The position numbers and the translations under genes were made by a program. From assembly GCF_056712565.1 (NCBI RefSeq), contig NZ_CM160072.1: a stretch of DNA of 64,000 nt; one strand, given 5' to 3'. This document shows positions 2,341 to 18,850 of the stretch, one piece after another. The notes beneath the pieces are model-generated. The model made no database searches, had not been told where the DNA came from, and worked only from the letters and a program-made list of their open reading frames with translations. Numbering within the stretch: the stretch's first letter is position 1; each line of letters starts with the position of its first letter.

Positions 2341-4563
2341 TTGGCTGTTCAATTCGCTTATCCGTGGAACGTCCCACGGTCGGCAATCTCCAGCCCATAC
2401 CTTACTTATGAGCAACAGCATCGCCGCGACCGTATGTTCGCGGCTTTGCTGCATGCAAAAAAGGTGCTTTCTCTCCAGCCCGACTGCGTGCGGTTAGATG
2501 TTTATCGCACTGCTGCGGTGCTGGAGCAAAATCAGGGTAGTCAACGAGCCAATGCATTTTTAATCAGCTTCTGCAAAAAGGCATTGCCGCGTCTTGAACT
2601 GGTCGCAAAAAAATACGAATGCGCTGGTATCAACAGCAAGGTATCAACCGCTGTTTTTGGAAGTCATTTTGATACTCAGCAAATGCAATATCTGTCGTCA
2701 CGCATGGTTAATATGGTCGCCCGATATAACCGTCTCCCGGACATGTCGCGCGCTGATGTTGACCTGTTGGCCGCTGATATTGCTAATTTCATTCGTGGTG
2801 AACTTGCCAACATTAATGACCACGGATTCGGCGAGCTTAAAACGCTGTACACCTGGTATATTCGTGCTGGCTTTATTTCCCTCCAATTCAACGTTATCCC
2901 ACCACATTGGGAGCGGGTTGAAAAAAAATATGTCGGTGCGGATGAAATCGCACCGGCTATCGCCAAAATGTTTAACGATGGGTGGTGGCGCGGTCGTTTG
3001 CGCCGTGTAGCAGCTACGTGGCGCGAACACCTGCAAATTGCAGTCGGCAACGTCAGTAAGAAAAAAAACACTTACGCGAGTAAAAACTGCGTGACTGACT
3101 GGCGTGAACAAAAGCGCCGCACTCGTGAATTTCTCAAAGGTCTGGATCTCGAAGACGAAGACGGCAACCGTATCAGCCTAATTGAAAAATATGATGGCTC
3201 AGTTGCTAACCCTGCGATTCGCCGCTGTGAGCTCATGACCCGCATTCGTGGGTTTGAAAACATCTGTAATGAGCTCGGTTATGTCGGTGAGTTTTACACT
3301 CTAACCGCGCCGTCAAAATATCACGCCACGACTAAAGCCGGTTACCGTAACAGCAAATGGAGCGGTGCCAGCCCGGCTGACACGCAAAACTATCTAACCG
3401 GTATCTGGGCGCGTATCCGTGCCAAACTACATCGGGAAGATGTCCGTATTTTCGGTATTCGTGTCGCCGAGCCCCATCACGACGGCACTCCACACTGGCA
3501 CATGCTGATGTTCATGCTGCCGGAAGATGTTGAATATGTTCGCTCCATCGTCCGTAAATACGCATGGAAAGAAGACCGCCACGAACTGAAAAGCGATAAA
3601 TCCAAAAAAGCACGTTTCCACGCGGAGTCCATTGACCCGGAGAAAGGCAGCGCAACCGGCTATGTTGCTAAATACATTTCAAAAAATATCGACGGTTATG
3701 CTCTCGATGGTGAAACCGATGATGAAAGCGGTGAGCTGCTGAAAGAGACAGCCCCCGCCGTTTCAGCATGGGCTGCGCGCTGGCACATCCGTCAGTTTCA
3801 GTTTATTGGTGGTGCGCCGGTGACGGTTTACCGTGAGTTGCGTCGCCTCGCTGATACCGAAACCGCGCACGGTCTGAGCGTTGAGTTTGCCGCCGTCCAT
3901 GATGCCGCCGACGCTGGTGACTGGGCTGGTTATGTTAATGCTCAGGGTGGGCCGTTTGTCCGTCGCGATGATTTACAGGTGCGCACACTGTATGAACCGC
4001 GTACCGAGCTTAATCAGTACGGTGAGGAAACGGTATGTATTAAGGGGGTCTACGATTCCTCCATAGGTGCAGGAAGCCCGATTTTAACCCGGCTCACTCA
4101 GTGGAAGATTGTTCCGAAGCGTGCTGTTGATTTGCCCGTTGACCTTCAGGACGGCAAAGCCGTCCCTCGGAGTTCTGTCAATAACTGTACGGGAAGCGAA
4201 AGCGATCCACCGATACTGGATTTAACAAAACCACTGAGTCGGCGTGAAAGACGAGAATTGACCAACCGACTCAGGAAGCAAAAGCCAGCAGCACGGCGAA
4301 AATTCATCCACGGAACGGATGAGCAAAACGCAGCTATAGCTAAAACTATCGATGAGATACATCTGACAACCGGCATTAATATCAGCCGGGGCGAAGCCCT
4401 GCACCTGATGGCCGGTGGTAAAAGTTGTTTTGATGGTAAATGGCTACGCGGAACGGCCAAAGGAGAAATATTTTCCGCAGCACCATCGCATGAGGCTAAA
4501 GCTCGGAAAATCCTTAATCGTGTTGCGGCGATGGCTGAAGCATTAAAACCAATACATGAGTAA
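2341..4563 (+). CDS. A: replication initiation endonuclease (P2 gpA family, rolling-circle initiator)
   Basis: 740-aa ORF (TTG start in track; true start may be downstream ATG); motifs PHWHMLMF and YVAKYISKN (active-site Tyr region) as in gpA. Confidence 0.8.
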   Translation: MAVQFAYPWNVPRSAISSPYLTYEQQHRRDRMFAALLHAKKVLSLQPDCVRLDVYRTAAVLEQNQGSQRANAFLISFCKKALPRLELVAKKYECAGINSKVSTAVFGSHFDTQQMQYLSSRMVNMVARYNRLPDMSRADVDLLAADIANFIRGELANINDHGFGELKTLYTWYIRAGFISLQFNVIPPHWERVEKKYVGADEIAPAIAKMFNDGWWRGRLRRVAATWREHLQIAVGNVSKKKNTYASKNCVTDWREQKRRTREFLKGLDLEDEDGNRISLIEKYDGSVANPAIRRCELMTRIRGFENICNELGYVGEFYTLTAPSKYHATTKAGYRNSKWSGASPADTQNYLTGIWARIRAKLHREDVRIFGIRVAEPHHDGTPHWHMLMFMLPEDVEYVRSIVRKYAWKEDRHELKSDKSKKARFHAESIDPEKGSATGYVAKYISKNIDGYALDGETDDESGELLKETAPAVSAWAARWHIRQFQFIGGAPVTVYRELRRLADTETAHGLSVEFAAVHDAADAGDWAGYVNAQGGPFVRRDDLQVRTLYEPRTELNQYGEETVCIKGVYDSSIGAGSPILTRLTQWKIVPKRAVDLPVDLQDGKAVPRSSVNNCTGSESDPPILDLTKPLSRRERRELTNRLRKQKPAARRKFIHGTDEQNAAIAKTIDEIHLTTGINISRGEALHLMAGGKSCFDGKWLRGTAKGEIFSAAPSHEAKARKILNRVAAMAEALKPIHE

Positions 4564-5576: not shown

Positions 5577-6518
5577 TTAATTTATTTTTAATGAATGGTA
5601 ATCTCGTGAGTTGACCGAAGATTTGAGATAACTGCAATCATTAACCGACAGTATTGCCGCTAATAGGCGACATACCAGTGCCTGCATTTGCAGCAATATA
5701 TCGTTACCATATTGACTGTTGTTAACACTTGAGAAACCAAGCGGTTGACCAAAAAAAATAGCCTCATGAAAATTATCATTGCGGATGCCAGAAATGTTTT
5801 TTTTACCTGACACCCATGTGGGGATTGATAACCCATAAATTTTGCACATCCACTTTAATCGCTTGTAATGATTTGGCGGTTTTTTATCAGGAGCCTTGTC
5901 ATGCTCAGCCCACGACAAAGCAAAGCACCCATCAAGTGCCATGTAAAGATACTGGAATTTTTCAAAAGAAAGGTATTGTGGGTTTTGAGATAAGAATAGT
6001 GCATGCACCACTGCCGCAATTCTTTTGGGGGAGTGCGCATCCTTATGTTTGCCATTTATATAATTAAGAGCCAGTTCTATGACTTCTTTTTCAGAGCATC
6101 CAACGAGAATAAAGTCGGTTAACTTAGTGGGCTTGATAGTGGTTGCATCTAAAAAACCAGCGTCAGTGGTTGTCAATCTTATTCCCTTGAAAAAAGAAAG
6201 GCACCACACAATAAAGTTGAGAGTTTCTAACGAGGATGTATTTTTTAATTTTAGTGTGTGCGTTTTGGGCATACTGAATACTCGGTGACTATAAGGCATT
6301 GTGGATATGCCACCATTAAGGTTATATACATCTTGGTTTCCAGGGTATATCCAACCTTTCACAACGTTTTTATCATTATTAACACGCTCCACTTTCTCAT
6401 TGAGACCAGGTAAAGTAAGCAAAGAAAATTGTTCAGTCTCAATGTTAACTTCTACTGGATAGTATCCAAACTCCGACATAATCTCATTGGGTTGCTGTTC
6501 GTCAACTTCACCTTGCAT
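5577..6518 (-). CDS. hypothetical cargo protein, 313 aa, with RNxxxH motif (possible HEPN-like)
   Basis: AT-rich ORF unlike flanking phage DNA; motif GIRNDNFHEAIFF (R-x4-H) near C-terminus; no other recognisable domain. Confidence 0.6.
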   Translation of the reverse strand: MQGEVDEQQPNEIMSEFGYYPVEVNIETEQFSLLTLPGLNEKVERVNNDKNVVKGWIYPGNQDVYNLNGGISTMPYSHRVFSMPKTHTLKLKNTSSLETLNFIVWCLSFFKGIRLTTTDAGFLDATTIKPTKLTDFILVGCSEKEVIELALNYINGKHKDAHSPKRIAAVVHALFLSQNPQYLSFEKFQYLYMALDGCFALSWAEHDKAPDKKPPNHYKRLKWMCKIYGLSIPTWVSGKKNISGIRNDNFHEAIFFGQPLGFSSVNNSQYGNDILLQMQALVCRLLAAILSVNDCSYLKSSVNSRDYHSLKIN

Positions 6519-6755: not shown

Positions 6756-6774
6756 GGCGTGGCGGGGAAAGCAT
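6756..6774. other. cos: cos cohesive-end sequence, 186 type
   Basis: GGCGTGGCGGGGAAAGCAT equals the 19-nt 186 cohesive end as recalled (P2 GGCGAGGCGGGGAAAGCAC); in GC-rich non-coding stretch between A-side cargo and portal gene. Confidence 0.6.
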
Positions 6775-6993
6775 TGCGCGTCAGCAGTGATGCGTAATAA
6801 TAAAAATTATCCTCTGAGCGCGTCGTGATGGCGCTGTCGTGGTCGCTGCTGGTTCGTTGGTGGTCGGGTGTGTTCGTGCGCGTGAGACGCATCTGATGCG
6901 TGATGGTGGTGTGCATGGAAAAGCCACCAGGAGCAGCGGCTTTACAGGAGTGGCAGGATTCAAACTGCTAATTATGTTTCTACTATGATTAAA

Positions 6994-7998
6994 CTAATTT
7001 ACATGTATGTAGAGTTCACCGTCGCCAGACCAATCGGGACACTCTAAAACAAGCCCAAACTGCTTGAATATTTCATCAATGATTATTGTTATCTCCCGAA
7101 AATCACCAAAACCTGTAATGTGCTGGTCATTAAACTTCCCATAAAGATTCTGAAAAGCAATGCCTAATTCTGATAATTGATATCTTATCTTTGAGTTGGA
7201 TAGTGTAAGGGATAGCTTTGGATCGTATTCTTTAATATTGATGTTTAGAGAATGGACATAACCCATCGCATAAGCATAAGAGTTGATGATTAGCCTGATA
7301 CGTTTTTTTACTTCGAGATACATGTCATTCAGAGAAATATTACCGTACTTATAACCCCAGATGAGTTTTTCAATCTCGTCAGATACTTCATTTACAACAG
7401 TGTCAAGATTCTCTAAAAATAAATCGATAGTTTCTTGAGGGGCAGACCCCGAAGACATGTAATTAGCGAGATATTCAGACCATGCACGCGTGGCTGAGAT
7501 AAGAAGCGCGCTACCATACTCGTTGACTGTAAAGTTTTGGGCTAAGCATGTTAGTAAGTTTTTTTCATGTACGTGCACTAATTCATGGTGAATGCGATGG
7601 ATGACTGCGAGGTATCCTTCTTCTTTCAGTTTTAAGAAGCTACCATCATTGAAAAGCTCAACAAAAAAATCAATCGATAGCACAAGGGTATATTCTTCAC
7701 ATAGCCCATCATTGCCAATTTTTGTTACTAACTGCCCGACGGCTGCGCCCTGTTTACTATTGGTAAATGAACTAGGGGATTTGTGTTGGTAAGAGGATGT
7801 TACCTTTTGAAGAGCTTCACTGAAGTTATAGGAAACAATCACGCATTTTAATTTGGAGATATCAAGATTGAGATTTTTTGTTAAAGCTCGGATAGCTTCT
7901 AGTGTGAAATTACCGATATTATTTGCTTCTTGCTCAGTAGCGAAACCTTCGAGGGTTATTTTAAAATCAGTTTCCAAAATATTAATCTCCGCGCCCAT
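6994..7998 (-). CDS. hypothetical cargo protein, 334 aa, HExxH...E zinc-metallopeptidase-like motif
   Basis: AT-rich ORF between cos and portal gene; HELVH with Glu 22 residues after first His (gluzincin-like spacing). Confidence 0.6.
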   Translation of the reverse strand: MGAEINILETDFKITLEGFATEQEANNIGNFTLEAIRALTKNLNLDISKLKCVIVSYNFSEALQKVTSSYQHKSPSSFTNSKQGAAVGQLVTKIGNDGLCEEYTLVLSIDFFVELFNDGSFLKLKEEGYLAVIHRIHHELVHVHEKNLLTCLAQNFTVNEYGSALLISATRAWSEYLANYMSSGSAPQETIDLFLENLDTVVNEVSDEIEKLIWGYKYGNISLNDMYLEVKKRIRLIINSYAYAMGYVHSLNINIKEYDPKLSLTLSNSKIRYQLSELGIAFQNLYGKFNDQHITGFGDFREITIIIDEIFKQFGLVLECPDWSGDGELYIHVN

Positions 7999-8016
7999 TG
8001 TTTTGATATTCGATGC

Positions 8017-8045
8017 ACTATAGCTTTCGCAGATTGCATCTTCAA
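8017..8045 (-). promoter_or_regulatory. putative sigma70 promoter for the HExxH gene
   Basis: Reverse strand TTGAAG -17 bp- TATAGT about 20 nt upstream of ATG at 7998. Confidence 0.3.
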
Positions 8046-8075
8046 TAATGAGCGCAGAGATTGTGGCGGCCTAAG

Positions 8076-9122
8076 TTATTCTGGGTTGTCGAGGGTGTAC
8101 TCTTTGAATCTGATGACCTCCATGCCGAGCCAGTCATTTACCTCCCTGAACCTGTCCTGTAGCGGCGACAGCTCGTTGCGCACAAATACCTTTGCCACCT
8201 TCTCAACATCACCGAGTGAACCGATATTCTCGGGCTTGCCGCCCATGAGCTGGAACGGTACGCGGTGCGCGTCCATCAGATCGGCGGCACTGGCCTTCTT
8301 GATGTTGAAAAAGTCATCCTTTGTGGCGACCTCGCTCAGTGGCACGATTTTGATGCCGTCCGGTTTTCCGCCGGGAGCGTAGAAAAACAGGTTCTTAAAG
8401 TTGCCGAGCCCTTTTGAGTTGCGCATCGCCTCGCGCAGCGATTCGACGTCGGTCGCGCTCTGCGCCGGGTCAGTCACATACATGATGTAACCCGCGTGCG
8501 CGCCGTTCTGATAATACTTGCGGCGGAACAGCGTCGCGGATTCATTCAGCCAGGCGGAATTTAGCGCGCTGAGATATTCGGGCAGGCCGTAAATCTCCTG
8601 ATTAATGTCGGGCTCCAGCAGGTGAAACACGGTATCAGGCGCGAACTCGTGCGGCTGGGTGAAGTTTTCCACAAACCAGAAAATCGAATCGTCGACTCCG
8701 CGTCGGGTGTATTTGGCTGGCGAGGCCAGCAGTTTGATTAACTGGCCGGTGACGCTGTGGCGCTGCTCAAGAAAGGCGTTACCGAACACCAGATAATCGA
8801 GCGCAAAGCGGCTGAAATCCTGACGGGATAACAACGGGTGCGGAATGTAGGTGCTCGCGAGCACGTTACGCTTAACATAAATTGGCGAGCTGTGATGCAC
8901 GGCAGAGCGCAGGCTCTTTGCCAGCCCTGAGAAGCTGACCGGCGGCTCGTACCATTTGCCGTTACTGATGCACTCGACGTAATCCAGAATGTCGCGCTTA
9001 TCGAGTACCGGCACCGGCTCGCCGAAGGTGAACGCTGTCGTTTTTGGCGGTGCGCTGGCGGTCAGTTGTTGTGGTTTGCTGGCCTTTTGTGCGTTGGCTT
9101 TACGGGATTTTTGTTTACCCAT
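8076..9122 (-). CDS. Q: capsid portal protein (P2 gpQ family)
   Basis: 348 aa, size/position as P2 Q, immediately downstream of terminase on reverse strand. Confidence 0.8.
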   Translation of the reverse strand: MGKQKSRKANAQKASKPQQLTASAPPKTTAFTFGEPVPVLDKRDILDYVECISNGKWYEPPVSFSGLAKSLRSAVHHSSPIYVKRNVLASTYIPHPLLSRQDFSRFALDYLVFGNAFLEQRHSVTGQLIKLLASPAKYTRRGVDDSIFWFVENFTQPHEFAPDTVFHLLEPDINQEIYGLPEYLSALNSAWLNESATLFRRKYYQNGAHAGYIMYVTDPAQSATDVESLREAMRNSKGLGNFKNLFFYAPGGKPDGIKIVPLSEVATKDDFFNIKKASAADLMDAHRVPFQLMGGKPENIGSLGDVEKVAKVFVRNELSPLQDRFREVNDWLGMEVIRFKEYTLDNPE

Positions 9123-9123
9123 T

Positions 9124-10893
9124 TTAGTTGAACTCCAGAATAGATTTAGGCTGCATGCCGCTACCGGCAGAAAGCGGTTCGTTTAACAGGGCGTGCATGG
9201 TCGCCCATGCGATATCGGCGTGGCTGGCTTCCTCGGTGCGGCTGGCCTCATAGGTGGCGCTGCGCCCGCTGCTGGTCATGGTTTTGCGGATGGACATAAA
9301 CGACTGCGTGACGTCGGTTGCTCCGGCGTCGTACTCCAGACAGCCACGGCGAATGGTGTCTTTCGCCTTGAGTACCATTGCGGTTTTCATTTCAGGTGTG
9401 TAACGGATGCCGCGTGCCGCCGGGTAAAATGAGCGCACCAGCTGGAACACGCCGAGACCGAGGCCGGTTGCGTCAATGCCGATGTATTCGACGTTGTATT
9501 TCTCGGTCAGCTTGCGGATGCCCTCTGCCTGTGCTGCAAAATCCATGCCCTTCCACTGGTGGCGCTCCAGCATGCGGAACTTGCCACCAGAGACCACCGG
9601 CGGCGCGAGCACGACGCACCCGGCACTGTCGCCGGTGTGTGACGGGTCGTAGCCAATCCAGACAGGACGAGAGCCGAACGGATGGTCGGCGAACGGGGCA
9701 AAGTCCTCCCATTCCTCCATCACATCGACCATGCAGCGCTGCAGCTCCTCGAACGGGAATACCGACGCTTTATCGTCGACAAACTCGCACATAAACAGGT
9801 TCTTAAAGTCCTCATCACTGTTTTCGCGTTTGAGCTGGTCGAGGTCGAACAGGGTGCAGCCACCCGCAAGGGCGTCCTCAATGGTGACAATCTGCCGCCA
9901 CTGGCCATCGTCGCAGAGCTGGCCACCGGCGAGCGCGCTGTGACTGATGTCGATTTCGATGCGGTCGGCAATCCGGCTGCGCCCCTTGTTGAACAGCTCG
10001 CCAGACCAGAAGGGGTAAGCGCCGTGCGCCAGCGTGGAAGGTGTCGAAAAATAGGTCGAGCGCAGGTGCTTTTGCGAGGCCATGCCCGAGGCGACTTTGC
10101 GCAGTTTCTGAAAATTCGGGATCCAGAATATTTCATCGACATACAGATCGCCGTTATGGCTCTGCGCGGTGTTGGAATTGGTACCGAGAAAAATCAGTTT
10201 TGCGCCGTTGTTACCGATGACAATCGGGTCGCCAGTCAGGTCAACGTCGACCAGTCGCGCAAACTGGATGATGTATTCGCGGAACACGTAAGCCTGCGTT
10301 TTACTGGCTGATAAAAATATCTGGTTATGGCCGGTTTTGAGTACGCGCAGCAGTGCCTCGCGGGAGAAATAGAATGTCGCGCCAATCTGGCGGGATTTGA
10401 GAATGTCACGAATACGGTGCTCCAGTCCTGCGCGGTACCACTGCAACTGGTACTCGAAAGACTGGTCGAAAAATAATTCCTCTAGTTTATCGATAGCCTC
10501 GTCGCTGAAAAAATTCTTTTTCGGCTTTTTGCGCTCCCCTTTGTTGCGGTTGGCGACGTTGGGGTTAAGGTCGGCTTCGTTGCCGGTCTGGCTGTAGCGG
10601 TTGACTCGCGCCAACCGTTCAATCTGCCGTCCGAGCAGGTCAATCTCTTTGAAATCACCCCCTGTCTTTTGCGGCTTGGCGATGAGCTGAATCAGCCTAG
10701 CCTCAAGGCTGCTTTCAACGCGGGAAATCGGCGCGATGCCGTCCCAGCCGTCGCGCTGCTTCCAGCTCTGCACGGTCGGGCGCTTGACCTGCAGCATTTC
10801 GGCAATCTGTGGCACGGAAAAACCCTGCCAGTAAAGCAGCGATGCCTGCCGTCGCGGGTCATGCAACAAGGTTGTATCGGTGGAAATGGTCAT
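9124..10893 (-). CDS. P: terminase large (ATPase) subunit (P2 gpP family)
   Basis: 589 aa, size/order as P2 P. Confidence 0.8.
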   Translation of the reverse strand: MTISTDTTLLHDPRRQASLLYWQGFSVPQIAEMLQVKRPTVQSWKQRDGWDGIAPISRVESSLEARLIQLIAKPQKTGGDFKEIDLLGRQIERLARVNRYSQTGNEADLNPNVANRNKGERKKPKKNFFSDEAIDKLEELFFDQSFEYQLQWYRAGLEHRIRDILKSRQIGATFYFSREALLRVLKTGHNQIFLSASKTQAYVFREYIIQFARLVDVDLTGDPIVIGNNGAKLIFLGTNSNTAQSHNGDLYVDEIFWIPNFQKLRKVASGMASQKHLRSTYFSTPSTLAHGAYPFWSGELFNKGRSRIADRIEIDISHSALAGGQLCDDGQWRQIVTIEDALAGGCTLFDLDQLKRENSDEDFKNLFMCEFVDDKASVFPFEELQRCMVDVMEEWEDFAPFADHPFGSRPVWIGYDPSHTGDSAGCVVLAPPVVSGGKFRMLERHQWKGMDFAAQAEGIRKLTEKYNVEYIGIDATGLGLGVFQLVRSFYPAARGIRYTPEMKTAMVLKAKDTIRRGCLEYDAGATDVTQSFMSIRKTMTSSGRSATYEASRTEEASHADIAWATMHALLNEPLSAGSGMQPKSILEFN

Positions 10894-15956: not shown

Positions 15957-16386
15957 CGCCGTGCCGCAGCTCCGAAATAATCCCGATATGCTGCGCCTTT
16001 TTGCCGACAACGGCCATACCGATTCCCGACTGGCGAGCTCGCTGTCGTTTGAAAAGGTGTACGTGCTTAACGTGGTGGTGACTGACTTCACCGGTGACCT
16101 TGATTTGATATTCGTGCCGGTGCAGGCGTGGCTGCGTGAACATCAGCCGGACATTATGACCACCGACGACGGGCGGGAAAAAGGATTCACCTGGATTATT
16201 GATATCAATAACGACGATTCGCTCGATATCAGTATCAGCCTGAGGCTCACCGAGCGCACACTCGTCAAAGAGGTCGACGGCGCGCTGCACGTCAGCTATG
16301 CCCCTGAGCCGCCACTGCCTGAGCCGGTGACGCGCCCGGTCGAGCTGTACGTTAACGGCGAACTGGTGAGTAAGTGGGATGAGTGA
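15910..16386 (+). CDS. R: tail completion protein (P2 gpR family)
   Basis: 158 aa, order R-S. Confidence 0.7.
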   Translation: MNSMQKHKSLRKALINAVPQLRNNPDMLRLFADNGHTDSRLASSLSFEKVYVLNVVVTDFTGDLDLIFVPVQAWLREHQPDIMTTDDGREKGFTWIIDINNDDSLDISISLRLTERTLVKEVDGALHVSYAPEPPLPEPVTRPVELYVNGELVSKWDE

Positions 16387-16825
16387 ATTAACCGCGCTGC
16401 AGGAACGCCTTGCCGGTCTGATTGCCAGCCTGTCACCGGCGGCACGTCGGCAAATGGCGGCTGAGATTGCGAAAAAGCTGCGTACCAGTCAGCAACAGCG
16501 TATCAAGCGCCAGCAGGCACCCGACGGCACCCCGTATGCGGCACGAAAGCGCCAGCCGGTGCGGAGCAAGAAAGGTCGGATTAAACGTGAAATGTTCGCC
16601 AAACTGCGCACCAGTCGCTTTATGAAAGCCAAAGGCAGCGACAGTGCGGCGGTGGTGGAGTTTACCGGCAAGGTGCAGCGCATGGCGCGGGTTCATCAGT
16701 ACGGCCTCAAAGACCGGCCAAACCGTAACAGCCGGGATGTGCAGTACGAGGCGCGCCCGTTGCTCGGTTTCAATAGTATAGATATGAGAATTATTGAGCG
16801 GTTAATAATTGGGGCTTTGGATTAA
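16379..16825 (+). CDS. S: tail completion / virion morphogenesis protein (P2 gpS family); last ~18 codons AT-rich
   Basis: 148 aa; composition switches to AT-rich at about 16770. Confidence 0.7.
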   Translation: MSELTALQERLAGLIASLSPAARRQMAAEIAKKLRTSQQQRIKRQQAPDGTPYAARKRQPVRSKKGRIKREMFAKLRTSRFMKAKGSDSAAVVEFTGKVQRMARVHQYGLKDRPNRNSRDVQYEARPLLGFNSIDMRIIERLIIGALD

Positions 16826-16853: not shown

Positions 16854-16880
16854 AGGCTGGATAAACACCAGCCTTGATTT
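16854..16880. terminator. hairpin between convergent S and HIT-family gene (bidirectional terminator candidate)
   Basis: GGCTGG-ataaacac-CAGCC followed by T-rich run. Confidence 0.4.
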
Positions 16881-17524
16881 TATAGTTTGAAATCTGCGTA
16901 ATTATCAATAACCTCTAGAACACCGCTGATGTTGTTATCTCTGCGCCAATTCCAATTGCCATGTATCAAATTTGCATTAGAATAAAGATATCTAAGGAAC
17001 TGAGATGGTAAGAGTGGTTTGTTGCATAAAAATTCATCATAACTATTACTCATATACCACACATATCCATTTTTAATGTCAAAACTTAAATTCTCACCTT
17101 CAATTTTCTTAAAGTTAATTTCTTTATTTAGAGCATTTTCAAACTCTTGTGTATAATAAACACAGTGTATATGAGCGTGAGAAATGCACCCTCCTGAACG
17201 ATCTATATTTTCACCTGCTCCGCTTTCAAAGAAAATTAGAGATCTACCAGATTGGTGGATTATAAATTCATTAAGTTCTCGCAGAATCTCCTTGCCATTA
17301 CTCCGGGTATCTCGATCAAGAGCAGCAAAGGAGTTGATATGCCGCTTAGGAATCAGCATCACATGCGAATTATTTAGCGGGCCAATACTAGGTACAATTA
17401 GAAAATCATTTGTTTCTGCAATGATATTTTTCTTGTCATTTACGATTTCATCGTATCCTTTGATAAGGCTAATGCCATTTATTTCATCGCATATTCCACA
17501 GAACGAATTACAAGAATTATTCAC
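16880..17524 (-). CDS. HIT-family (histidine triad) protein with ~80-aa C-terminal extension; cargo gene
   Basis: CNSFCGICDE, NSHVMLIPKRHI and histidine triad HAHIHCV; AT-rich. Confidence 0.7.
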   Translation of the reverse strand: MNNSCNSFCGICDEINGISLIKGYDEIVNDKKNIIAETNDFLIVPSIGPLNNSHVMLIPKRHINSFAALDRDTRSNGKEILRELNEFIIHQSGRSLIFFESGAGENIDRSGGCISHAHIHCVYYTQEFENALNKEINFKKIEGENLSFDIKNGYVWYMSNSYDEFLCNKPLLPSQFLRYLYSNANLIHGNWNWRRDNNISGVLEVIDNYADFKL

Positions 17525-18089
17525 GTTTATTGTCTCCTGGTTTTTTAGGGAGCAATTTTTCAGCCCAAGATGCGAGTCGGCTTAGAACTAAGTCTGAAAA
17601 ATATCCTAATATAAAACAAATCGAGAATGCAATTTTGGTCTTACCATGCCCTTTAATGGAGGATACAAACGTATCCGGAGATAATATCGTATAAGAACAA
17701 AAAGCCACTAAAGCAGCTAAGAACGGAATAAAAATCCTCCAGTAGAACTTATGGGATTCCCAAGGGAAATTATACTGATTGTTTTTCCCTCTAGCAGTTA
17801 CTCTATAAAACCATTTTGCATTATACACCCACCCTCCAAAAAAACCACCAAGAATAGAAAACAAAGATATTTTATTATTATATGACAGCTCAAAAACAAA
17901 TTGAAAAAGAAAGGCGAGAATGCAACCTATTACAAAAAGAACTATTAAATAAGCAAATTCGAATTTTATTTGTTCACAATCGTTATTAAAATAAGGCACA
18001 ACCTCATCATCGCCTAAGGTTTTTTTTCTTTCAGTCATTTGCCAAACACCTTCATTTTTTACTGTGAGCCAGGGTAATTGCATATTCAA
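17517..18089 (-). CDS. small integral membrane protein (about 4 TM helices); cargo gene, overlaps HIT gene by 8 nt
   Basis: Hydrophobic stretches YLIVLFVIGCILAFLFQFVF, ISLFSILGGFFGGWVY, IFIPFLAALVAFCSYTIL, IAFSICFILGYFSDLVL; AT-rich. Confidence 0.65.
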   Translation of the reverse strand: MNMQLPWLTVKNEGVWQMTERKKTLGDDEVVPYFNNDCEQIKFEFAYLIVLFVIGCILAFLFQFVFELSYNNKISLFSILGGFFGGWVYNAKWFYRVTARGKNNQYNFPWESHKFYWRIFIPFLAALVAFCSYTILSPDTFVSSIKGHGKTKIAFSICFILGYFSDLVLSRLASWAEKLLPKKPGDNKRE

Positions 18090-18214: not shown

Positions 18215-18850
18215 ATGAAAAATCTAAATTCTTTGCAAGAAATCGCACGCGCGATCCGAAATCTCATCCGTACCGGCATCGTTAGCGACGTAGACCTCAA
18301 GGAGGGGCTATGTCGTATCCAGACCGGGGGGATGCAAACCACTTGGCTGAACTGGCTGACCACCCGAGCCGGTCGTTCGCGGACGTGGTGGGCTCCCTCG
18401 GTCGGTGAGCAGGTTCTGCTGCTGGCAATCGGTGGCGAGCTTGATACCGCTTTCGTGCTGCCGGGTATTTTCTCCGACGATAACCCCGCCCCGTCTGCCT
18501 CGGCGGATGCGTGGCATGTGGCTTTCCCTGATGGTGCGGTCATTGAGTACGAGCCCGAAACCGGCGCGCTGACGGTCAGCGGCATAAAAACGGCCGACGT
18601 GACGGCATCGGAGTCCATCACCGCAACCGTACCGCTGGTACTGGTGAAAGCCTCGACCAGTATCACCCTCGACACCCCGGAGGTGATTTGCACCAATAAG
18701 CTAACGACGGCGACGCTTGAGGTGCAGAAAGGCGGCAAGATGAGCGGCAATCTCGAACATACCGGCGGGTCACTGTCGTCTAATGGCAAGGTACTCCACA
18801 CCCATAAACACCCGGGCGACAGCGGCGGGCAAACGGGGGCACCGTTATGA
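18215..18850 (+). CDS. V: baseplate spike/assembly protein (P2 gpV family)
   Basis: 211 aa as P2 V, first of V-W-J-I-H-G run. Confidence 0.8.
   Translation: MKNLNSLQEIARAIRNLIRTGIVSDVDLKEGLCRIQTGGMQTTWLNWLTTRAGRSRTWWAPSVGEQVLLLAIGGELDTAFVLPGIFSDDNPAPSASADAWHVAFPDGAVIEYEPETGALTVSGIKTADVTASESITATVPLVLVKASTSITLDTPEVICTNKLTTATLEVQKGGKMSGNLEHTGGSLSSNGKVLHTHKHPGDSGGQTGAPL

Follow-up and report, generated by a model that had tools for sequence, protein, structure and literature searches.

A gluzincin-fold protein from a P2-like prophage cassette as a candidate Lit-like immune protease

A P2/186-like prophage of E. coli carries, between its cos site and its portal gene, a gene for a 334-amino acid protein that very probably has a gluzincin fold with a conserved HExxH...E site. 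Judged by analogy to known systems, this protein is most likely a latent immune protease that resembles Lit of prophage e14. For the role of the protein, we lean to a modest degree towards anti-phage defence, and we see an even chance that our reading holds in all its parts, i. e. that a moron cassette encodes a soluble cytoplasmic zinc metallopeptidase of an undescribed gluzincin-fold family, which is expressed from its own promoter and acts against phages in a Lit-like manner. It is the family that is undescribed; its kind, a zincin of clan MA, and its setting as cargo of the P2 hotspot are already known.

Position and anatomy of the cassette

The gene belongs to a P2/186-like prophage (Peduoviridae) in the window, i. 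e. in the whole analysed stretch of 64,000 nucleotides. RefSeq lists its product as WP_001622301, a 'hypothetical protein', in E. coli SF-468 (100% match to the window). From the gene A side, the local order is gene A, a DinI-like gene, an ORF of 313 amino acids, cos, the 334-aa ORF, the portal gene and the terminase gene. The features of this region are:

2341-4563, plus strand: replication gene A, first in the local gene order
5577-6518, minus strand: AT-rich 313-aa ORF on the gpA side of cos, the classical old/tin position
6756-6774, plus strand: cos cohesive-end sequence GGCGTGGCGGGGAAAGCAT, identical to the cos of phage 186 (0 expected by chance)
6923-6937, minus strand: terminator-like hairpin followed by a T-run, at the position homologous to tW of phage 186 and about 57 nt downstream of the stop of the 334-aa ORF
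6930-8075: AT-rich insert of 1,146 bp that separates the portal stop codon from the terminator tW, in place of nucleotides 176-195 (20 bp) of phage 186
6994-7998, minus strand: 334-aa ORF (ATG start, longest ORF) for the predicted gluzincin-fold protein
7987-7990, minus strand: Shine-Dalgarno-like GGAG, followed after 9 nt by an in-frame TTG (7977-7975, codon 8)
8017-8045, minus strand: sigma-70 promoter-like sequence TTGAAG-17-TATAGT; it lies within the 77 nt that separate the 334-aa ORF from the stop codon of the portal gene
8076-9122, minus strand: portal gene (homolog of P2 Q and 186 W), directly upstream of the 334-aa ORF on the same strand
9124-10893, minus strand: terminase gene, upstream of the portal gene

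A preliminary description made from the sequence had placed the ORF between cos and the portal gene and had called it AT-rich against GC-rich phage DNA. Both statements are correct: the ORF lies between these two features, and its GC content is 0.375 (0.38 for the insert) as compared to 0.565 for the portal and terminase genes. Window positions 6756-6929 align to positions 1-175 of phage 186, from cos to tW, and window positions 8076-8399 align to positions 196-519 of phage 186, from the portal stop codon on. No flanking direct or inverted repeats were found around the insert, and a transposon-type insertion of the cassette was rejected since there are no repeats at its edges.

The sigma-70 promoter had initially been described as near-consensus. 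A promoter-like element on the gene's own strand is indeed present (8045..8017), but it matches the consensus at only nine of the twelve positions, and the original wording was too strong. Moreover, 11 comparable promoter-like sites are found in the 3.8-kb region as compared to 7.0 +/- 2.8 in shuffled sequences, and the match is thus not significant by itself. Among E. coli, Salmonella and Klebsiella, the -35 and -10 hexamers do not differ in sequence or in their distance from each other, in contrast to the spacer and the flanks; this comparison comprises three closely related intergenic sequences, and its statistics are correspondingly weak. Similar promoter-like elements, read by eye, are located upstream of homologs in unrelated contexts (loci L006 and L007). 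This picture fits a cassette that brings its own promoter-like element. The foreign GC content, the conserved promoter-like element, the tW-like terminator downstream and the lack of the gene in phages 186, PSP3 and others mark it as a self-contained accessory ('moron') cassette with a putative promoter of its own.

In a lysogen, the gene would be transcribed from this sigma-70 promoter. The late terminase-portal operon is its immediate upstream neighbour, there is no terminator-like site between the portal gene and the ORF, and since the gene is located upstream of the operon's terminator, late transcription by read-through would be probable as well. This arrangement would suit a counter-defence or otherwise phage-serving protease that is made late together with portal and terminase and that cleaves a host factor such as an immune protein, thus helping this phage or other mobile elements to establish themselves or to replicate. 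We consider such a function unlikely. The presence of an own conserved promoter-like element with equivalents in non-phage contexts argues against it, as do several properties of the relatives that are discussed below.

Of 5,426 complete E. coli genomes, 25 carry the gene, always as a single copy of full length, and comparison with the Salmonella and Klebsiella orthologs yields dN/dS values of 0.19-0.23. These data indicate that the gene is real and under purifying selection. One might argue that there is no functional gene here and that the ORF or its motif has arisen by chance in AT-rich DNA, and the facts that the annotated ATG at 7998 is not preceded by a Shine-Dalgarno sequence and that the protein has no database family match could be taken in this way. 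The probability of this explanation is negligible: it is refuted by the conservation data, i. e. the dN/dS of about 0.2, the 25 full-length copies among 25 E. coli carriers and the 355 homolog clusters with invariant motif residues, to which the confident fold is added, and the GGAG with the in-frame TTG provides a plausible start. In the Klebsiella ortholog, an ATG at codon 7 is located 6 nt past the same GGAG. The position equivalent to the TTG is the start in 19 of 32 homologs, and residues 1-7 of the 334-aa protein are disordered in the AF2 model (pLDDT < 50). Given the homolog starts, the disordered residues and the two candidate initiation sites, one without and one with a Shine-Dalgarno-like sequence, the true product may be a protein of 327 amino acids that starts at the TTG 7977-7975.

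Close to the cassette, RefSeq contains a 51-aa 'hypothetical protein' (WP_164966458; 6635-6790, plus strand). Its ORF spans the cos cohesive-end sequence at 6756-6774, and it is probably a spurious gene call.

Fold and active site of the protein family

The AF2 model of the 334-aa protein is confident (pLDDT 90.8, pTM 0.90) and has the architecture of a zincin catalytic domain: an N-terminal beta-sheet with helices, an active-site helix and a helical C-lobe. The structural matches of the model are peptidases of the families M1, M30, M9, M36, M4 and M34, with an identity of about 10% over a length of about 160-180 residues in each case. The structure matches have the following values:

M1 aminopeptidases: 9.1-8.2
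M30 lugdulysin: 8.2
3cmn, a putative hydrolase: 8.1
M9 collagenase: 7.5
M36: 6.9
thermolysin: 6.5
anthrax lethal factor: 6.4

The designation as a gluzincin-like protein in the preliminary description is borne out by this confident model, in which the fold is of the gluzincin type and the HExxH motif is part of a zincin-like fold. Sequence-based searches, in contrast, assign the protein to no described peptidase family. It has no match in Pfam or NCBIfam, and PHROGs places it only in a family of unknown function. Pfam recognized no family in 70 relatives at E <= 0.001, and searches of the PDB by sequence and profile with two alignments, A1 and A2, yielded no hits apart from spurious ones to coiled coils. 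In the BFVD viral structure library, there is no close match to the 334-aa protein. The relationship to ImmA/IrrE, M48 or M78 that had been proposed for a profile check was not found: there is no Pfam match for the 334-aa protein or for any of the 70 relatives. Membership in M48 (HtpX/Ste24-like) was rejected because of the missing Pfam match and the lack of a transmembrane segment, and membership in M78 because there is no Pfam match and the neighbours are the portal gene and cos, without an HTH repressor. The protein is acidic and has neither a signal peptide nor a transmembrane segment (maximum 19-residue Kyte-Doolittle mean of 1.19).

Three sites of the protein are relevant for the active centre:

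Codons 7573-7587, minus strand: HExxH motif H138-E139-L-V-H142, in helix 126-148 of the AF2 model
Codon 7519-7521, minus strand: E160, 22 residues past H138, the '+22' Glu of the preliminary description; not conserved
Codons 7471-7482, minus strand: W173-S174-E175-Y176, in helix 160-185; E175 is the proposed third zinc ligand

The HELVH motif is present at residues 138-142, as had been described. In a protein of the same size and composition, the chance expectation of one HExxH is about 0.01-0.02, so that the motif alone is only mildly unusual, and the weight rests on its conservation. E139 is conserved in all of the 219 homologs, H142 and E175 are each found in 218/219, H138 in 217/219, W173 in 210/219 and Y176 in 201/219, and the complete set of HExxH and E175 is kept in 216/219. 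In an alignment of 70 sequences that share about 20% identity, no columns other than H138, E139, H142, E175, A178 and G246 are invariant, and E175 is invariant in both A1 and A2. The sole loss of E175, in the protein P0141, coincides with the loss of H138; P0141 is one of only three homologs with a broken HExxH.

The preliminary description had also noted a Glu 22 residues after the first His and, based on this, a spacing as in thermolysin. E160 does sit at this position; however, position 160 is a Glu in only 19/219 homologs (D in 35, G in 34, A in 32, and others), and it varies within close relatives (E/D/A/V/S). We have thus rejected E160 as a zinc ligand. Since no Glu is conserved at a distance of about 20-24 residues past the first His, the thermolysin-like spacing turned out to be a coincidence of this ortholog group, and the conserved residue is instead E175 at +37, on the helix next after the HExxH helix. 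The comparison of the homologs points to HExxH-x32-WSEY as the signature of the family, with E175 (+37) as the likely third zinc ligand. In such an active site, H138, H142 and E175 would hold the zinc, and E139 would act as the general base.

A spacing of 37 between His and Glu is within the range of gluzincins, as it is about 39 in botulinum toxin and about 49 in lethal factor. In M1, M30 lugdulysin, M9 and M4, in contrast, the spacing is about 23-24, and the Glu of thermolysin is located less deep in the helix than E175. An hhalign comparison with the catalytic domain of E. coli PepN gave no meaningful alignment, and the same holds true for Lit (see below), so that these alignments offer no solved gluzincin from which the position of the third ligand could be read. 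The 334-aa protein also differs in other ways from the gluzincin peptidases with which it was compared: the identity is about 10% with no sequence or profile match, and it is a cytoplasmic protein with neither a signal peptide nor a propeptide, encoded on mobile elements.

Relatives, fusions and the P2 hotspot

A profile search of 1.84 billion representative proteins identified homologs in 355 clusters at 50% identity, which come from several phyla and are mostly of full length (310-370 aa). Similarly, Foldseek against AFDB50 found full-length matches (TM about 0.8) in uncharacterized proteins of Proteobacteria, Firmicutes and Campylobacterota. A few of the AFDB relatives are labelled as M48, ImmA/IrrE or DUF4932 in UniProt, but these labels were not reproduced by Pfam. 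The hosts include marine Shewanella and Psychromonas and also enteric bacteria, which argues against a host-specific virulence role.

The relatives are solitary cargo of very different elements: they were found in the P2 hotspot, a CTX-like filamentous prophage, a Tn7-like transposon, an ICE, a mobilizable element and integrase islands, and across these loci there is no conserved neighbour or partner gene. Among the neighbours related to defence are a complete Septu pair PtuA/PtuB (5e-110 and 3e-84), a pAgo-associated nuclease (4e-52) and PDC-S14 with a type I R-M system, and in chromosomal islands, relatives are also neighbours of R-M, Septu and NERD genes. This association with defence is qualitative and covers about 11 non-P2 contexts.

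In the case of the filamentous prophage (L007 8001-8972, Logan contig SRR11247485_29), a solitary homolog with 42% identity ends a CTX-like prophage with Rep_trans, RstB and Zot and adjoins an integrase; such a carrier is unusual for a gene that may serve in defence.

These contexts bear on two of the alternatives. First, the counter-defence protease introduced above would agree with the presence of relatives on ICEs, mobilizable elements and a filamentous prophage, all of which are carriers of anti-defence genes, too. The location of other relatives in the chromosomal islands mentioned above, next to defence-related genes, is at odds with this idea, as is the fusion of the module to two domains that have been validated as defence rather than counter-defence domains. 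In addition, the gene is dispensable for the phage, since it is present in only 25 of the 5,426 E. coli genomes and most P2-like phages lack it. Second, the protein might be an accessory protease that acts outside of phage conflict, in lysogenic conversion, stress proteolysis, addiction or an ImmA/IrrE-like regulation of the element. The genes of the P2 hotspot are not all defensive, and partition systems and toxins are found there as well (PMC9122126), which leaves room for this idea, and the M48 or ImmA/IrrE labels of some structural relatives could be cited in its favour. We nevertheless regard it as quite improbable: neither a conserved HTH/repressor partner nor any other conserved neighbour was detected, the 70 members have no Pfam match to M78, M48 or other families, the signal peptide and transmembrane segment are missing, and marine Shewanella and Psychromonas are hosts next to enteric bacteria.

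The module has been joined to other domains. In two proteins of about 590 aa, it is fused to DUF2971 / PDC-S31. One of them, P0202 (591 aa), keeps the motif as HHELAH...WDEY, and the other one, P0141 (597 aa), reads HRELGH...WDAY and has lost both the first His and the conserved Glu. Moreover, six AFDB proteins of about 700 aa that are named DUF4238, such as UniProt A6X728, contain the module, as judged from the UniProt names and the TM-scores. Both partner domains are known from defence: DUF2971 is similar to ADP-ribosyltransferases (ART-like) (PMC12522546), and Aristaios, a stand-alone DUF2971 from the lactococcal plasmidome, was validated as an abortive-infection system in 2024 (PMC11381338). 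Stand-alone DUF4238 is a validated anti-T7 protein from the gpA-gpQ hotspot (PMC9122126).

As P0141 lacks H138 and E175, the zincin module may persist and act in such fusions without catalysis. This leads to another alternative, in which the family comprises pseudo-enzymes, i. e. zincin-fold proteins that have lost the protease function and serve as binding or sensor modules. The retention of the module in P0141 in spite of the replaced residues would be in line with this possibility, and the fusion to effector domains that look toxic, such as the ART-like DUF2971, suits a sensor role. Yet the stand-alone proteins keep HExxH and E175, in 216/219 homologs at about 20% overall identity, a pattern that is expected if the active site is under selection. 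For the 334-aa protein, we therefore judge the loss of the enzymatic function to be very improbable, and an active immune protease remains our preferred reading.

Orthologs of the gene occupy the same slot in Salmonella, where they are very common, in Klebsiella and in 12 P2-like contigs of IMG/VR, as determined in a scan of viral contigs with alignment A1. In two of these contigs, from distant P2-like phages (L030 and L032), the portal is only 33-35% identical to that of the window, yet the zincin-like gene, just downstream of the portal gene, is 51-56% identical; this suggests an exchange of the cassette among divergent phages at one conserved slot. The genes across cos from the 334-aa gene vary among these phages. 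Thus, the portal side of cos, from the portal stop codon to the terminator, is a cargo slot that has been reused in divergent P2-like phages.

The gpA-gpQ interval has been described as a defence hotspot of P2 that also holds non-defence cargo, namely partition systems and toxins (PMC9122126), and the 334-aa gene is located in its cos-proximal part. In the hotspot table of that study, the 334-aa protein is listed only as 'hypothetical', with varying neighbours (Rousset et al. 2022; PMC9122126). The classical genes old and tin of phage P2 are comparable to the 334-aa gene in that they reside in the same hotspot, are borne by a prophage and are dispensable for the phage. They differ from it in their position: in P2, they are found on the gpA side of cos, whereas the 334-aa gene is on the portal side, where it separates the portal stop codon from the terminator. 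The proteins are unrelated.

The 313-aa ORF on the gpA side of cos was considered as a partner gene and rejected: it accompanies the 334-aa gene in only 2 of 12 viral loci, so that the two genes are independent of each other, and Salmonella and Klebsiella carry other genes at this position. It has no match in Pfam, NCBIfam or PADLOC and belongs only to phrog_5937, of unknown function. The 313-aa ORF is another uncharacterized cargo gene of the hotspot.

Comparison with known systems and proposed mode of action

The closest functional model is Lit, the cell-death peptidase of the cryptic prophage e14 and the established example of a metalloprotease that stays latent until it stops a phage infection: in the presence of the Gol peptide of phage T4, Lit cleaves EF-Tu, and the infection is aborted. 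Lit (Peptidase_U49) resembles the 334-aa protein in several ways: each is a cytoplasmic protein of about 300 aa with an HExxH motif, each is encoded by a single gene of a prophage, and the two are similar locally around the motif (ILHHEISHV in Lit and RIHHELVHV in the 334-aa protein). By sequence, however, the 334-aa protein is not a member of the Lit family: hhalign against Lit of E. coli K-12 aligned 19 residues around HExxH at a probability of 5%, and there is no match in Pfam or PADLOC.

Other systems resemble the 334-aa protein in different respects. DUF4238 and Aristaios/DUF2971 are, like the 334-aa gene, solitary genes for proteins of about 300 aa in hotspots of mobile elements or defence; their folds are unrelated to that of the 334-aa protein, which contains neither of the two domains. 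The regulatory metallopeptidases ImmA/IrrE (M78) and CapP are, like the putative protease described here, HExxH proteins of the zincin type encoded on prophages, ICEs or defence operons, but they are paired with an adjacent HTH repressor (ImmR, DdrO, CapH), which has no conserved counterpart for the 334-aa gene. One distant relative matches capP at E 0.005, in the HExxH helix only. With PADLOC 2.0.0, the 334-aa protein matched 0 families at E <= 1, and it is absent from the supplements of DefensePredictor. In the literature, including DefensePredictor and domain-centric screens, nothing was found on the 334-aa protein, nor any experiment on one of its relatives.

Based on the analogy to Lit, we suggest that the 334-aa protein would work as a single-protein anti-phage system, which is the least certain step of the proposed mechanism. 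The protease would remain latent until a competing phage infects the lysogen. Upon activation, it would cleave either an essential host factor, resulting in abortive infection, or a phage protein. A simple prediction follows for the putative active site: an E175A mutation should abolish the function, whereas E160A should not. If the protein is indeed an active protease that is triggered by phages, then a widespread family would join the very short list of metalloprotease-based anti-phage systems, and this would account for the fusion of the module to two otherwise mysterious defence domains.

It is tempting to go one step further and to speculate that the family is a new class of single-protein immune proteases, in which the zincin module recognizes a phage protein as its substrate or activator, and that this module has been reused as a sensor on unrelated effectors (DUF2971, DUF4238), sometimes without the catalytic residues. 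We regard this extended idea as rather unlikely; if it is true, the module would be a protease-derived pattern-recognition domain that is present across several bacterial phyla.

The prophage contains a second AT-rich island, at 16880-18089 on the minus strand (GC about 0.33-0.37), with ORFs of 214 and 190 aa. Their products correspond to phrog_23000 and phrog_22917, both of unknown function, and have no PADLOC hit. The island is flanked by a tail-completion gene (16379-16825) and a baseplate gene (18215-18850), and it looks like another slot for accessory (moron) genes of this prophage.
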